Shown here in pieces: positions 10,341 through 63,938 of a DNA stretch of 64,000 bases (position 1 is its first letter; each line of letters opens with the position of its first letter). The position numbers and the translations under genes were made by a program. Under the pieces are notes generated by a model. That model ran no database searches. It was given only the letters and a program-made list of their open reading frames with translations, and had not been told where the DNA came from. This DNA is from Callorhinchus milii (Eukaryota), in NCBI RefSeq assembly GCF_018977255.1, contig NW_024704742.1, positions 62,994,001-63,058,000 of the forward strand, written 5' to 3'.

Positions 10341-11081
10341 ATTCTGCTCTCAGTCTTTTCACCTTCACATTTTGTGATGGTGCTTTTCAAACTTCGTTAA
10401 TTAACTATTTAAGATCTTCAAGGTCATATTTGTGATGAAAGATAAGTTTCAGTAAATCACGCCACATCATTAACTTTGACTGCCTATCTTTATAATGAAA
10501 TGATAGTATCAGTTCATTATTTTTTAAAAGGTAAAAGAGAAACCTACTGAGCACAATTACAGCAGATAAGAGGCAGTTAGGACTTTAAAACCATCCCGCT
10601 GGCTGTATTAAAATTGTTTTCTGCATCCCTGTAGTGTCTAATGTACATGGTGGATGTTAGTGTACATATTGAAGATTAATTAAGCCATTAATTCCTACAG
10701 TTCAAAGATGGTAATGATTAAATAAATGCAATTTAATTTAATTTTAAAACATGGTCATTTCTCTCTGGTTGACAGCCTGCCTGACAGATTGAAAGTCAAA
10801 CAGCAAGAGGTGTCAGTGCCCAAGTTTCCTTTAAGTCACAAGCCATTTACCAGAGTTAAACACTGGATTTATTCTGTTGGGGAAACAAGTTTTAGCCATT
10901 ACATTACTGTTTTTAAAGGACATTTGTGTCTGAAATTAACCATTGTAGGAGACTCATGTCTCTTAATGCAGGGAACCAAGGTTGAAAACAGTAGGAGAGA
11001 AGTTAAGAAGATTACCAAAATGGGATTTAAAAGCCTTTAGATTTAAGGAGGAATATAATATTAATAATAATAATCCTTGCA

Positions 11082-11285
11082 AAATGAAAAATACTGCAGA
11101 TGCTGGAAATCTGAAATAAAAACAGGAGTCACTGAGAACACTCACCAGGTCAGGCAGCATCTAAGGAGAAAGGAAAGTGGTCAACACGACAAAGGATTGT
11201 GGACCCAAAACGTTGACTCACTTTCCTTTCTCCATAGATGCTGCCTGACCTGCTAAGTGTCCCAGCGATTACTGTTTTTGTTTCA
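11082..11285. mobile_element. Penelope-derived fold-back element (inverted pseudo-LTR ends)
   Basis: ~74-bp inverted arms 11112-11185 and 11212-11285; degenerate hammerhead-like loop; TAATAATCCTTGCA direct repeat on both flanks; arm matches 17751-17826. Confidence 0.85.
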
Positions 11286-11601
11286 TAATAATCCTTGCAT
11301 TTGCTGTAGTTCCTTTCACACCAGGAGGATGTCTCAAACAGTGCAACAAGATTTACTGTAAACTGTAGTAGCTGTGTAATTTGTAGGTGAATGCAGCAGC
11401 CAATTTGCAGGCAGCAATGCTGCACAACACAATAAGATTTGGTGAAGATGCCGGGAGAAGAAAAGGATTTAAGATGTCACAATGTAAGTAGATGGCAGAA
11501 CAACAACTGATATTGGGATTTAACTTGTGCTTTGAATTCATAAATTCATAATGTATCTATAATAAATAATAATATAATGGAGCCCCTTATCATGTCATCA
11601 A

Positions 11602-13080
11602 TTTTTTTTTGTCTGGTGCCTGATGTACGTGAAAAACCCGTCACCATGCTTACGAGTAGCCAAAACAAGCTGAGGTTTCCCTGCATCCCAACTACACATG
11701 GAAATCCCAGAAATAGATTGTTAGAATGGAATCCACGCTCTCTCCCTGGAGGGACACATCCTGCTTACCTAATTCCAGAAAGTATTAGGTGCAGGTTGGC
11801 AAGATCCAAGGCTTGGGGATCCCAGAGTGTGTGTTGGTGTACTGCTGGAGTCTAACCAGATAAAACCACATAGTTTGCCGTTGATATTGCTGTTCGGCAA
11901 GCTTTCCCACTGCTTATCCAGCTAAAACCACCCTACCCATTCGGGCTTTGATTTGCAGGGTTAGCAGGAGCTGAGTGGCATGACTCCCTGCCCTCAGTGA
12001 CTGGCCTACCCTCCCAGGTCCTGCCAATGAGCCAGGCTGGCTGTATTGCCATCAGCAGTGCCCTGGAATACTGCAGACCCGCCTGGCTCAGGAACCGGAC
12101 TACAGAGCGCTGGTTCAATTCCAACATTCCATTGCCATGCATGTCACCTTGGAGCCAGTTGAGCTTCAAGTTGACCCAACTTACCTCCCCCCAAGGAGGT
12201 AGCATTTTTGCCCACAAAATATACAGTCAATTCACTTTACAGTATATTCTGTGAAGCGCTTTGAGACGTCTAGAAGACGTGATAAAGCGCTATATCAAAT
12301 GCAAGGATTATTTTACACATATCATTATATAGTTGGTTGTTTGACATCTGACAAGCATGGTTTTCAGCCCTCACTAGGTGGATGATAGGTACAAGGAACT
12401 CCCCGCGAGCTTCCCCGTGAGCAACACATATCAGTATAAAATGTATGAAAGCATTGCAACTGTCTTCACGTACGCAGCTTGGGCACACATCCCTTCCCAT
12501 TGAGAAATGGTTCTACCAATTGGAGGTGAGGAGTTTAAGCAGCAGCTGTTTGCCTCTCTGCAGCCAATCTAGGTGGATTCCAGGCTCTGGACATAAAATA
12601 AAAACGTGTGTTCACAAACTCAAGACTCCAGGTAACACCTTCTAGCAGCTGTCATCCAAGCCTCAGAGTTTCCTCATTGGTTATGTGCTTTCAGCATGAT
12701 GGGAGGACCTTTACAGAACAACTTGGGACATGCTAGCCACGTTGATGTTCTTGAGCTTCAAGACCAATGCCATGTACCAGGCTTACTCAGCATTAGCCGC
12801 TTATCCAGGTCCTCACGAGAGGGCCCTGTGCAAATAGATGTGCCCATTGTGAAGCTGCCTCCACCTCCAGGTGCTTAGCGACAGGCTGGAGCCCTCCCTT
12901 CCTGAAGCCGGTTCCTGTGTTTGCCATAAATCCACCTTGCTGCTTGATCCCGGACTTTGCAGATGGGTCAGAGAAAACATATCCGCTGTATCCCCGGGAG
13001 CTTGAATCCATAAAGGAGGACTGTTTGTACACGGGTCTTGTATACCGCAAGCTTGACCTGCATTGAGACCTTCACAGTAC
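11602..13080 (-). mobile_element. RTE-X-like non-LTR retrotransposon 3' half (RT thumb, CCHC knuckle, long 3' UTR, poly(A)), split by a SINE tail at 12198-12312
   Basis: Minus strand: KLAVYKTRVQTVLLYGFK; GKQLLLKLLTSN; CPSCVRED...HFILICVAH.EARGEFL; T9 at 11602-11610 is the poly(A). Confidence 0.7.
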
Positions 13081-16879: not shown

Positions 16880-17187
16880 GGAGTCCTATAGCTCAGTGGT
16901 TAGAGCACTTGCTTCGCAAGCAAGAGACCTGGGTTCAATTTCCGGCAGGATGAAACCTTGGGTAGGTTTCCTTACTCCACACGCCTGATAATAATCCCTC
17001 AAGAAAAAAATAAATTAATAATAATTTGGTCACTCAATCTATGACTGTTTGTGGGACACTGCTGTGGGCGATTGGCTACCGTGTTTCACCCACAAATATA
17101 CATTCAATTCACAGTATATTCTGTGAAACGTTTTGAGATATCTAGAAGATGTGAAAAGTGCTATATCAAATGCAAGGATTTTTTTTA
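16880..17187 (+). mobile_element. tRNA-Ala-headed SINE, short form
   Basis: A box tagctcagtgg, anticodon loop ttcgcaa, B box ggttcaatttcc; junction ccacacgcctg|ataataatccctc. Confidence 0.92.
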
Positions 17188-17720: not shown

Positions 17721-18200
17721 TGAAATGCAAAATATTGCAGATGCTAGAAATCTGAAACAAAAACAGAAGTCGCTGGTAACACTCAGCAGGTCAGGCAGCA
17801 TCTATGGAGAAAGGAAAGTGAGTCAATGTTTCAGGTCCACGACCCTTCGTCAGAACTGGGGCATGTTGAGAGGGAGAGGTTTTTAGGACTAACAGTGAGT
17901 GGGGAGGCAGGACAAGGAAGACAAAGGAGAAAATGGTGTGGGGCACAGGGAATGATGGGTTAAAGAGGTGTTCATGATGCAAACCAAAGGAGGGTAGCAG
18001 AGGTAGACCAGATAGACTGTTAAGCTGTAAGCTCTTATGGAAGATGGGAAGATGGGAGGTGTTCTTATGGGCTGAAGTGGTTGAAATCATTATTGAGGCC
18101 AGTGGACTGTAAGGTCCCCAGCAGATAAATAAGGTGCTGTTCCTTGAACAGTGGTCATTGGAACAGTGTAGGAAACCGTGGATGGAGAGGTCAGATGACC
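17721..18200 (-). mobile_element. Penelope-like element 3' end (GIY-YIG endonuclease C-terminus plus pseudo-LTR)
   Basis: Minus strand DLSIHGFLHCSND, then after a frameshift KEQHLIYLLGTLQSTGLNNDF (18148-18080), matching the PLE motif EEQHLIFRLGTLQPxGLN. Confidence 0.85.
17820..17858 (-). ncRNA. Minimal type I hammerhead ribozyme motif (probably decayed)
   Basis: Minus strand cagtt-CTGACGA-agggtcgtggacct-GAAA-catt-gact: core boxes, short stem II, agtt/gact stem I. Confidence 0.7.
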
Positions 18201-21734: not shown

Positions 21735-22022
21735 GTAACTTTCTCTTTCTGATTAGTGCCATAGGATCTTTAATGTGCACCTAACATCCACCTCGGTTTA
21801 ATGTTTCATCTGAAGGACGACACCTTCAACAACCTAGCCCTCCCATAACCCAACATTGGAATGTTAGCATAAACTATGTGGATTCCAAGTCCCGACTTGG
21901 GCTTGAACCTGTAATAAATAATTCTTGCATTTGATATAGCGCTTTTCACGACTTCTAGATATTTCAAAGCACTTCACAGAATACTGTAAAGTGAATTGAC
22001 TGTATATTTGTGGGCGAAACCA
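21735..22022 (-). mobile_element. Deu-SINE fragment (21735-21910) followed by a SINE tail
   Basis: ggatctttaatgt...cctcggtttaatgtttcatctgaagga; tail attcttgcatttgatatagcgc. Confidence 0.75.
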
Positions 22023-30006: not shown

Positions 30007-31132
30007 AATCCAGCATGAATGAATAGTGTATGAATCCTGCCAAGTGGCCACTTGTCTCTACTGTAAAGTCAGTTGAAGCAGAAAAGTGTCAGACAGCCTC
30101 TCTTTCTGGGGTACAAGGATTCAAATCAGCCAATTGTGTGCCGCCTGCTTTCTCTGGATGTATTAAGAATGTATCCAATTTTCTTTCTGAGACATGACTG
30201 TGGATTGTGCAGACGTGAGAGTAAGTATGGAAAGTTCAGCAGCAAGCAGGAAGCTAGACGTTTGTGTCAGAAGTTGATAGCAACATTGCCTCTGGGTCAG
30301 AAGATTGTGGCTTCAAGCCCTGTATCAGATCCTAAGGTCATAATCTAACATGACAGTAGATGTGGAGTCCTGTAGCTTAGTGGGTAGAGCACTCGCCTCG
30401 CAAACGAGAGACCTGGATTTGATTCCCGGCAGGGCGAAACCTTGGGCAAGTTTCCTTATTCCACATGTCTCAAGGAAATAAATAAAATAACAATTTGGTC
30501 ACTTTAATCCATGACTGTTTATGTGAAAACTACTGTGCGTAATTGGCTGCCACGTTTCACCCACAAATATATAGTCAATTCATTTTACAGTGTATTCTGT
30601 GAAGCGCTTTTAGCTGTCTAGAAGATGTGAAAAGTGCTAAATCAAATGCAAGGATTATTATGACTCAGAGAATGCTGCTCTGAACCAGAGACACTGTTTT
30701 TTAGTTGAAACGTTGAACAGAGAACATGTCTGCTTGTTCATAGGTTCATAGTGGACTATAAAGATTTTATGACATTATTCAACATGAGAAGAGAGGTACT
30801 CTGTTAGTCCTAACCAACAATCATTAATTGATCACTGGCTTCACAGTTATTTGTGGGACTTGCTTGGAACATACTGATAATATAACACAACAAGAATAAT
30901 CCTTGCATTTGACATAATGCCTTATCACATCTATGAGATGTCTCAAAACGCTTCACAGTATATACTGTAAAGTGAATTGATTGTACATTTTGTGGGCAAA
31001 AATCCAGCCTCCAAAATCCAGCATGAATGAATAATGACTGAATCCTGCCAAGTGGCCACTTGTCTCCACTGTAAAATCAGCTGAAGCAGAAGAGTCAGAA
31101 AGTCTTTCTTTCTGGGACACAAGGATTCAGAT
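30007..31132 (+). repeat. ~120-bp direct duplication (30007-30126 and 31015-31132)
   Basis: aatccagcatgaatgaata...gaatcctgccaagtggccacttgtctc.actgtaaa.tcag.tgaagcagaa...caaggattca occurs twice. Confidence 0.9.
30364..30661 (+). mobile_element. tRNA-Ala SINE, short form
   Basis: ggagtcctgtagcttagtgggtagagcactcgcctcgcaa...; standard tail. Confidence 0.9.
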
Positions 31133-36261: not shown

Positions 36262-37043
36262 CAGTTCCTATTAAACCTGCAAGCCAAAGTCCTAGAGACG
36301 TGGTGGCTAACCTATGACTCACGTGGCCGTCAAGAAGCTTCGAGAAAAGTCGCACAAGGCTAGGTAAGTCCGTGCGATTGGTAGTGTGTTTTTAATTTTT
36401 TCTTGATTGAATATGTAAGCTGGTGATTTTTGCTAGGTGCACTTTATGTTCACATTTAGTTTATTTCCACCTTGGAGCTGAACTGGCTTCAAGGTGACAT
36501 TGCATCAATGGAATGTCGGAATCAAGTCAGCCCTCTGTGGTGGTCTCAGTCGTTCGGTTCCTGAGCCAGGCAGGTCCGCAATAGTCCAGGGCATTGCTAA
36601 TGACAGGACAGCCAACCTGACTGATCGTCAGGACCTGGAAGGGCAGACCAGCCACTAGGGTCAGGGAGTCAGCCCACACAGCTCCTGTTAATCCAGCTAG
36701 CCGAAGCCCTAGAGAGTAGGGTGGTCCTAGCTGGACAAGCAGCGGGAACGTTTATCAATGGCAAGCTGTGCAGTTTTAGCTGCCTAGACTCCAGCAGTAC
36801 CCCAATGTACACTATGTGGTTCCCAAGCCTTGGCTGTTGTCAACCTATGCCTAATACTTTCTGGATTTGGGAAAACAGGGTGTGTCCCTCCAGGGAGAGA
36901 GTGTGCATTCCATTCCAACAATCTATCTCTGGGATTTCCATGTGTAGGTGGGATGCAGGGAAATCTCAGCTTGGTTTGGATACTCTTAAGCATGGGGATG
37001 GGTTTCCGCATGTGTGAAACACCCGGCTGACCAAAAACAAACA
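36262..37043 (+). mobile_element. Second copy of the RTE-X-like LINE 3' end
   Basis: 36470-37043 aligns with the reverse complement of 11602-12190; ends acccggctgacc-aaaaacaaaca; possible ORF2 end QFLLNLQAKVLETWW...KVAQG* upstream. Confidence 0.8.
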
Positions 37044-52797: not shown

Positions 52798-53128
52798 TAA
52801 TAATAATAATAATAATAATAATAATCCTTGCATTTGATATAGCGCTTTTCACGTCGGGAGGACGTCCCAAAGCGCTTCACAGAACACATTGTAAAGTGAA
52901 TTGACTGTATATTTGTGGGCGAACGCGGCAGCCAATTGCGCACAGCAATGTCCCACAAACAGTCGTGGATTGAAAATGACCAATTTATTATTGTTTTTGG
53001 TTTTGGAGGGATTATTATTAGGTGTGTGGAGTAAGGAAACTTGCCCAAGGTTTCGCCCTCTGCCTGGAATTGAACTCAGGTCTCTCACTTGCAAAGCGAG
53101 TGCTCTAACCACTGAGCTACAGGACTCC
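52798..53128 (-). mobile_element. tRNA-Ala SINE (short form), best-preserved copy
   Basis: ggagtcctgtagctcagtggttagagcactcgctttgcaagtgagagacctgagttcaattcc; tail gggacgtcctcccgacgtgaaaagcgct nearly identical to the L2 tail. Confidence 0.95.
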
Positions 53129-59066: not shown

Positions 59067-60140
59067 GGAAACTTAATGCAAACACAAGGAAGAAGGAGGA
59101 AAGCAAACCTTTTGGCCTCCAAAATTCCTACAAGGGAAAAGTCTACTATTTCCAGACAACTGTACTGTGAAATAAGATTCCCAACTTCAAAGTCAATTGA
59201 AGAATCTCAAGAAGACCCATCTCAAGACCCTCCTCTTTGACTGTGCCTTTGGTCACCCTCCTTTCCCCCTTGCTCTCCACCCTACCCAATCCCAACCCCC
59301 AGCTCGCATCCGAAACACTGATTGTCCAGCATCTTGGAACGTCCTCCCGACATGAAAGATGCTATACAAATGTAATTTTGTTGTTTTTGTTGTTGTTGGA
59401 TGGCTCAATGTGTGCTGTTCAGGATTGACACAAATCATACTCTCATTCTGACAGATATAAACTGAAAGCAAGATCAGACTGACTGCTTTGAGCTTCAGAT
59501 ACAGGCGCAGGCAAGATGCTGAAGACACCATAGCAAAGTTAGGAAACATTTTTTAAAATTATTTGAATGGTGTAAAATCTCCCATGTTCCCTGCATTTAT
59601 TAATTGTATTTTCAGTTCTATGTTTTTACCTCACATCTGTTCCAATGAAGCTAAATAGTGTTCTCCCAGCACTCTGATGGCTAGTTTGTTACTTGCTATT
59701 TAAACACTGAGCAGCCACGGGGGTTATATCTAGTTCCTATGCTAAGTAGATCAAATCACCCGTGGAACAAGTTCCGTCACCTCAATACGCATCTGTTTGG
59801 CCCTGATTTCCTGAGCAACTGTTTCAAGTTCGGCACGAGTAATTGTTACTGTTAGATGTTGTTTCCACTGAGTCACCCCTGAGGTTATTGAAGTGACATT
59901 TCTGCTGGGTATGTACCTGATTATGTAAGGCTATGACCAAATGAAGACCTGTAGTGCACATTGCCTGAGGTACGGCTGTGACAGGCCAACTGAGATTCTT
60001 CAATTGACTTTGAAGTTGGGAATTTTACTTCACAGTACAGTTGTCTGGGAAATAGTAGATTTTTCCCTTGTAGGAATTTTGGAGGCCAAAGGGTTTGCTT
60101 TCCTCCTTTGATATCCTTTGCCTTTACATTGGATGTTTCC
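59067..60140. repeat. ~145-bp inverted repeat pair (59067-59209 and 59991-60140) with an L2 tail (59210-59398) inside
   Basis: ggaggaaagcaaacc.tttggcctccaaaattcctacaagggaaaa...cccaacttcaaagtcaattgaagaatctca and its reverse complement. Confidence 0.9.
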
Positions 60141-63489: not shown

Positions 63490-63938
63490 TTTTTTGGCTT
63501 TTTTGATCAGCCGGGTGTCTCACACCTGCAGAAATCCATGACCATGCTTACGAGTATCCAAACCAAGCTGAGATTTCTCTGCATCCCACCTACACATGGA
63601 AATCCCAGAGATAGATTGTTGGAATGGAATGCACACTCTCTCCCTGGAGGGCCTCATCCTGCTTACCTAATTTCGTAAAGTATTAGGAGCAGGTTGGCAA
63701 AAACCAAGGCTTGGGGACCCCGGAGTGTGCATTGCGGTACTGCTGGAGTCTAACCAACTAAAACCGCTTAGCTTGTCACTGATATTGCTGTCTGGCAAGC
63801 TTTCCCGCTGCTTGTCCAGCTAGGACCAGCCTATCCTTTGGGGCTTTGCCAGGCAGGCTTAAAAGAGCTGAGTAGTATGATTCCCTCCCCTGAGTGACTG
63901 GTCTGTCCTTCCAGGTCCTGCTGATAAGCCTGGCAGCT
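63490..63938 (-). mobile_element. Third, 5'-truncated copy of the RTE-X-like 3' UTR
   Basis: Colinear with 11602-12040; A-rich tail after acacccggctgatc. Confidence 0.85.

Follow-up and report, generated by a model that had tools for sequence, protein, structure and literature searches.

Two dead copies of a Penelope-like element 3′ end joined head to head in a SINE tail of Callorhinchus milii

Anatomy of the head-to-head unit and its target site

The window analysed here, a 64-kb stretch of Callorhinchus milii DNA, carries a hairpin unit of 204 bases within a repeat that proved to be the tail of an abundant, tRNA-headed SINE. We take this SINE to be of the Deu-domain type. The parts of the unit, together with the related features in the window, are:

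11068-11081, + strand: left copy of the target-site duplication (TSD), formed by the end of a (TAA)n run and the first SINE-tail bases; 14 nt, or 15 nt with 11067
11082-11111, − strand: one-sided tail of a Penelope-like element (PLE), 30 nt, the 3′ terminus of the left half, unpartnered in the right half
11112-11187, − strand: left arm, a PLE 3′ end with element sense on the − strand; 11186-11187 are ambiguous
11188-11211, + strand: loop, a decayed, 5′-truncated minimal hammerhead core plus stem II, continuous with the right arm
11212-11285, + strand: right arm, a PLE 3′ end with element sense on the + strand, tail-less, stopping 30 nt before the terminus
11286-11299, + strand: right copy of the TSD, an exact repeat of 11068-11081
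11286-11420, − strand: rest of the interrupted, older SINE tail that hosts the insertion, alignable to 27 further SINE tails of the window
16882-16953, 30366-30437 and 53060-53122: tRNA-derived SINE heads, from an Rfam scan
17723-18197, − strand: second family copy, a ~475-nt 3′ end with tail, hammerhead and coding remnant, whose far junction abuts a LINE fragment

The original prediction described a palindrome of about 200 bp with 74-bp inverted arms. These arms were confirmed, 11112-11185 pairing with 11212-11285 around a loop of 26 nt (11186-11211). Over arms of ~75 nt, 65 of 76 columns are identical, one further column included, and identity is 93% in the ungapped core 11138-11179/11219-11260. 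The symmetry implied by the word palindrome did not hold: the unit is an asymmetric palindrome, because the 30 nt at 11082-11111 are without a partner. The quoted loop is real and was wrongly bounded, as it starts at 11188 and reaches 3 nt into the right arm.

The 3′ ends of both halves face outward and their truncated 5′ ends meet centrally. With the hammerhead strand taken as sense, the left half is ~105 nt long including the 30-nt terminus, and its arm is 5′-truncated at a point 3-5 nt upstream of where the hammerhead is predicted to cleave; the right half, of 98 nt, extends 22 nt further upstream, into the hammerhead, and those 22 nt are absent from the left half. Since the 30-nt tail and the 22-nt loop sequence are each private to one half, neither half is a simple or snap-back copy of the other. 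Both resemble the second family copy, with 89% identity between 11082-11184 and 17723-17826 and again between 11188-11285 and the reverse complement of 17753-17851, and the tail shares 27 of 30 positions with that copy's terminus. Divergence per half amounts to ~8-9% (about 10/107 and 8/99 changes, loop and tail counted). Where both arms and the 17723 copy overlap, 9 changes are private to the left arm and 3 to the right.

Contigs from 4 of 24 listed sequencing runs (two from organism A and one from each of organisms B and C) were aligned to 10600-11620 at 80% likeness. An X1 contig among them matches 10600-11109 perfectly, which rules out an assembly artefact at the left junction; neither the right junction nor the whole unit is spanned by any of the contigs listed.

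The flanking repeats, predicted to be exact, 14 nt long and taken from a SINE tail, are all of these: TAATAATCCTTGCA stands at 11068-11081 and again at 11286-11299. Counting the A at 11067/11285, a base that could equally belong to the element end, lengthens the duplication to 15 nt. It is the sole 14-mer direct repeat at a spacing of 150-300 nt in the window, and any 14-mer direct repeat at that spacing was found in 6 of 100 shuffled windows. Its motif recurs in the window as the SINE-tail start, with 13 copies on both strands, and SINE sequence resumes collinearly past 11299. The two TSD copies are identical despite the 14% difference between the arms, which has a probability of about 0.1 and is tolerable at such an age.

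Judged by length, one 1087-nt contig of the related organism C looks like an empty insertion site. Its flanks are joined by 272 nt as against 491 in the window, a shortening by 219 where the unit plus one TSD comes to 218 (273 nt expected), and this match may be partly coincidental, because the contig has no alignment over 10810-10949. Joints from 11081 to 11285 were rejected as empty alleles, their short side covering at most 21 letters of a kind that any SINE tail yields; joints of the 'opposite strand' class turned out to be family copies switching between the two arms. Within the left flank, depth at 10845-10914 is ~1 in run X4, and parts of 10810-10950 are at 0 in runs X5 and X11; 10810-10950 is possibly a polymorphic or lineage-specific segment. 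To the right of the unit lies a dispersed repeat (11634-11700), 88-90% identical to 36939-37005 and 63532-63598 over the queried part. A search for a host exon near the unit returned no Pfam match above the cut-off for four nearby ORFs.

The second family copy and the hammerhead motif

The copy at 17723-18197 is the only other member of the family in the window, which contains 3′ ends only and no full-length element. A TSD of at least 8 nt was sought for this copy up to position 22000, and none was found. Upstream of its hammerhead, 18068-18195 holds a coding remnant, frameshifted and closed by a stop. Compared by eye with the supplement of PMC8557442, this remnant appears to resemble the C-terminus of a PLE GIY-YIG endonuclease; in its last 29 aa the residues E, I, (LG)T, G and N are spaced as in the Naiad and zebrafish Neptune C-termini of that supplement. 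Pfam returned no family for either piece of the remnant and a word-based protein search no homologue, and two HMMER matches, both to tandem-repeat proteins, were discarded as spurious. On the − strand, the tail end of 17723-17865 forms a small predicted stem-loop, and the whole 143 nt folds about as well as shuffles (z −0.57). A lizard PLE reportedly starts reverse transcription at a stem-loop.

We find a minimal hammerhead in this copy at 17817-17857 that is nearly intact, with a 5-bp stem II, a 4-bp stem I and a single core change (position 16.2); its core lies at 17828-17853 on the − strand, where it had been placed in the original prediction. The family consensus in contigs has the same core with a different stem II. 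Read position by position, the loop of the unit agrees with the earlier view that it is a decayed form of this core. A functional hammerhead has the core C3-U4-G5-A6-N-G8-A9 and G12-A13-A14 with stems I and II. The unit has lost C3 and U4 and carries A in place of both G8 and G12; its stem II is broken, the 5′ strand of stem I is absent, and folding of the loop sequence formed no structure. By its sequence the motif is catalytically dead, the lost C3 and U4, the two A substitutions and the broken stem II leaving it predictably unable to cleave. An Rfam scan of the window at gathering thresholds returned three tRNA-like SINE heads and no hammerhead.

The layout equals the minimal hammerhead (min-HHR) alignment in the available part of PMC4209133, which reads CUGA-GA, an extra base, stem II, GAAA and CGUU. 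The metazoan PLE pseudo-LTR motifs described there share the core, the extra base before stem II, the CGUU palindrome and the lack of helix III; their genome-wide copies are mostly solo, even intact motifs show low activity, and pairs on opposite strands ~100-700 bp apart had already been noted. Unlike these, the unit keeps part of the core in one half only, and that part is catalytically dead. One supplement file of PMC4209133 contains no shark or Callorhinchus match.

Target choice, family-wide depth and the predicted RNA

The original prediction also hinted that PLE remnants prefer SINE tails as targets. Both PLE ends in the window do lie inside such tails, which make up 12% of it (84 profile hits; whole SINE sequence ~15%), giving P of about 0.015, post hoc. 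A preference is plausible, and with two insertions the pattern is only suggestive. Under the 14-nt reading of the TSD, both nicks read A/TT (the slash marks the nick), and the copy at 17723-18197 joins its SINE where the consensus reads GAA/TT. All three inferable nicks, from two insertions, thus read A/TT, a triplet found at 2.8% of strand positions, with the qualification that each nick can be placed only to within 1-2 nt and that ATT is frequent in (TAA)n.

Paired A/TT sites fall within SINE tails in 21 of 68 cases at a stagger of 14 and in 21 of 56 at a stagger of 16, as against only 7-11 of 54-66 at staggers of 12, 13, 15 and 17. The copy at 17723-18197 sits at a paired A/TT site of stagger 16 in a SINE tail. 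Family flanks in contigs are A/T-rich with low agreement (0.39-0.45), in loose-end counts that leave out copies whose flank matches the TSD. An AT-rich and microsatellite insertion bias of PLEs is in print (PMC3846280, in the text available), and the lizard PLE protein PAc is described in part of PMC11167929 as preferring ATT on both strands in vitro. A resemblance between target and PLE tail was set aside as weak, since 1.3% and 3.9% of the 18,162 stretches compared in the window reach such a score.

Summed arm depth in the four runs was 54,000, 56,000, 58,000 and 123,000 times that of the flank contig. Depth at the central junction (11182-11187) was 3-45 times flank, or 6e-5 to 6e-4 of arm depth, where depth is a rough proxy and not copy number. 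The junction count loses some weight because contigs may represent hairpins badly; the gap of four orders of magnitude between arms and junction nonetheless speaks against amplification of a master that carries this junction. Other palindromic copies, whose existence had been anticipated, were found: among the contigs listed, 7 of 29, from organisms A, B and C, bridge the centre head to head with at least 31 letters on each side. These seven differ from the unit by 10-27 letters and 3-11 gaps, with indels at 11179-11187.

The tail bin has roughly 1/3-1/2 of the depth of the arm bins taken together, a proportion that an optional tail would produce, and the tail-less end recurs among family loose ends at 11260 in run X5. 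Further loose ends at 11188 and 11208 indicate that many copies begin near the hammerhead. In X5, the loose ends before 11188 comprise 304 contigs whose plurality sequence runs from (TAA)n straight into the beginning of hammerhead stem I, with an agreement of 0.43. The X5 loose ends are a hint, read from contig sequence, that organism B may harbour many short hammerhead-to-tail copies in SINE-tail-like targets. A metagenome pattern scan gave 0 matches; the 48 matches of a second scan were put down to chance, the longest alignment being 36 nt.

The long RNA hairpin that had been foreseen is borne out as a strong predicted fold on both strands (−110.1 and −119.9 kcal/mol; z −14.3 and −14.8), with none of 200 shuffles as stable in either case. 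By this model the hairpin would form only where some transcript happens to cross the unit; if transcribed, stub hairpins would add to the host dsRNA load. In the RNA sense, A>G accounts for 1 of 12 private arm changes, leaving no sign that an edited hairpin served as template.

Origin of the unit and comparison with known systems

A PLE origin, as originally proposed, is supported by the hammerhead, the one-sided tail, the inverted truncated partner and the TSD taken together, which form the layout given in the available text of PMC8557442, PMC3846280 and PMC8969392. In the Figure 2 legend and text of PMC8557442, a PLE insertion consists of an inverted 5′-truncated copy with a 30-40-bp tail at one end. 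The part of PMC3846280 at hand describes Pen2a/Pen2 with an inverted pLTR, a 31-bp tail and a TSD of 8-10 bp, and gives head-to-head order as the most frequent. Across these sources, EN+ PLE insertions (Penelope/Poseidon, Neptune, Nematis, Naiad) share with the unit the 5′ truncation, the inverted truncated copy, the head-to-head order, the 30-nt tail at one end, the TSD and an AT-rich or microsatellite target. The unit differs in being far more truncated, in having no ORF between the repeats, and in a TSD of 14-15 nt as against 8-10 nt in rotifer (Adineta) copies. Its truncated copy with inverted partner, one-end tail, TSD and minimal hammerhead are those of a PLE insertion.

Other systems resemble the unit in part. 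Inversion plus a TSD is also the outcome of L1 twin priming; unlike there, both halves of the unit copy the same RNA stretch. Non-LTR retrozymes are likewise short, non-coding, hammerhead-bearing and PLE-related, as far as set out in the available part of a preprint (bioRxiv 10.64898/2026.07.22.740005), but they are tandem head-to-tail units with complete hammerheads, whereas the present unit is inverted, single and dead; no tandem repeat was found at it. The likeness to MITEs (PMC8969392, in part) is outward, the arms being non-terminal and no link to a transposase having been found.

The unit is without catalytic or coding capacity. It is two dead copies of a PLE 3′ end joined head to head, known genomic debris and not a new mobile element, and very probably represents one old insertion of an endonuclease-bearing PLE, truncated to ~100 nt per side. 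The original prediction had instead favoured a non-autonomous, MITE-looking retro-unit, in which PLE proteins would copy a palindromic master RNA in full. In favour of such a unit, all three organisms have head-to-head copies centred close to the hammerhead, junction depth is above single copy, and non-autonomous PLE derivatives are known (PMC8557442 and the retrozyme preprint, each in part). Self-spreading of this kind is nevertheless very unlikely: the junction has 0.006-0.06% of the arm depth, bridging contigs vary around it as independent joins would, A>G changes are nearly lacking, and the layout is that of an ordinary truncated and inverted PLE. The many uniform copies, sharing ends and interior, that characterize MITEs were not seen in the depth data, nor do inverted repeats stand at both termini, the left one being offset by 30 nt. 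This offset, which places the left arm 30 nt inside the unit, also tells against a DNA-transposon MITE with the arms as terminal inverted repeats, an origin that would otherwise explain a short unit with inverted arms and a direct repeat on both sides; moreover, in a 475-nt copy that has a hammerhead and a coding remnant, the arm occurs only once, as the 3′ end. A TSD of 14-15 nt is atypical of cut-and-paste superfamilies, and we regard this origin as scarcely credible. Two separate insertions at different times in the same spot might be suspected from the excess of private changes in the left arm, but a single TSD encloses both halves, no target sequence lies between them, and divergence of the two halves is much the same once loop and tail are counted, which makes this reading extremely improbable.

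For the single PLE insertion that we prefer, the chances that it arose by a two-primer route are about even. The RT-endonuclease would nick both target strands 14 nt apart, each at A/TT, and each 3′-OH would prime cDNA on element RNA, one from an outer start site (tail included, ~105 nt) and the other from an inner site (no tail, 98 nt). Both cDNAs would halt in the hammerhead region and then be joined, gap filling would create the TSD, and the stub would afterwards decay to its present divergence. The main rival, which we think unlikely, is that a longer head-to-head insertion, or one self-primed on an antisense template, was afterwards shortened by a hairpin-promoted deletion of its centre. 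The available text of PMC3846280 describes palindromes at inverted junctions and proposes self-priming, the two ambiguous junction bases (11186-11187) fit repair, and the private sequence in each half is accounted for here too. The centre, however, has neither a palindrome nor clear microhomology, and plain snap-back of a single cDNA does not give both the tail and the sense-strand loop. The short length needs no later deletion either, because many family copies start near the hammerhead, as the loose ends at 11188 and 11208 indicate.

The two-primer route has parallels in PAc (Poseidon of Anolis carolinensis). In the available part of PMC11167929, both strands are nicked and extended in vitro, two RT start sites delimit the tail and uncleaved RNA serves as template; together with the ATT preference, these properties match our reading of the unit, whose right half extends 26 nt beyond the predicted site of cleavage. 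PAc belongs to another family in another host, and the inverted partner and TSD are not modelled in that part of the paper. More tentatively, and at clearly less than even chances, such stubs may be minimal records of PLE integration, in which a dimeric enzyme with paired A/TT nicks 14-16 nt apart and two start sites would give rise in a single reaction to the tail on one side, the TSD and the inverted partner; a SINE tail with two ready-made paired sites would then be a true hot spot. In a literature search, this model was not found stated in the text available. Inverted-junction formation and microsatellite-like target choice of PLEs are named as open in the part of PMC8557442 consulted. As a single locus the unit matters little, since family ends number in the tens of thousands and this is one dead stub. 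It is a clean example, whose anatomy excludes simple snap-back and fits two primings from the two in vitro RT start sites; if stubs are indeed records of integration, the tens of thousands of family ends per genome would allow a direct in vivo test of how PLE inverted junctions form. Elsewhere in the window, 59093-59209 and 59991-60108 form an inverted repeat of ~117 nt with 95-97% complementarity, 781 nt apart, perhaps a MITE or an inverted duplication of recent date.
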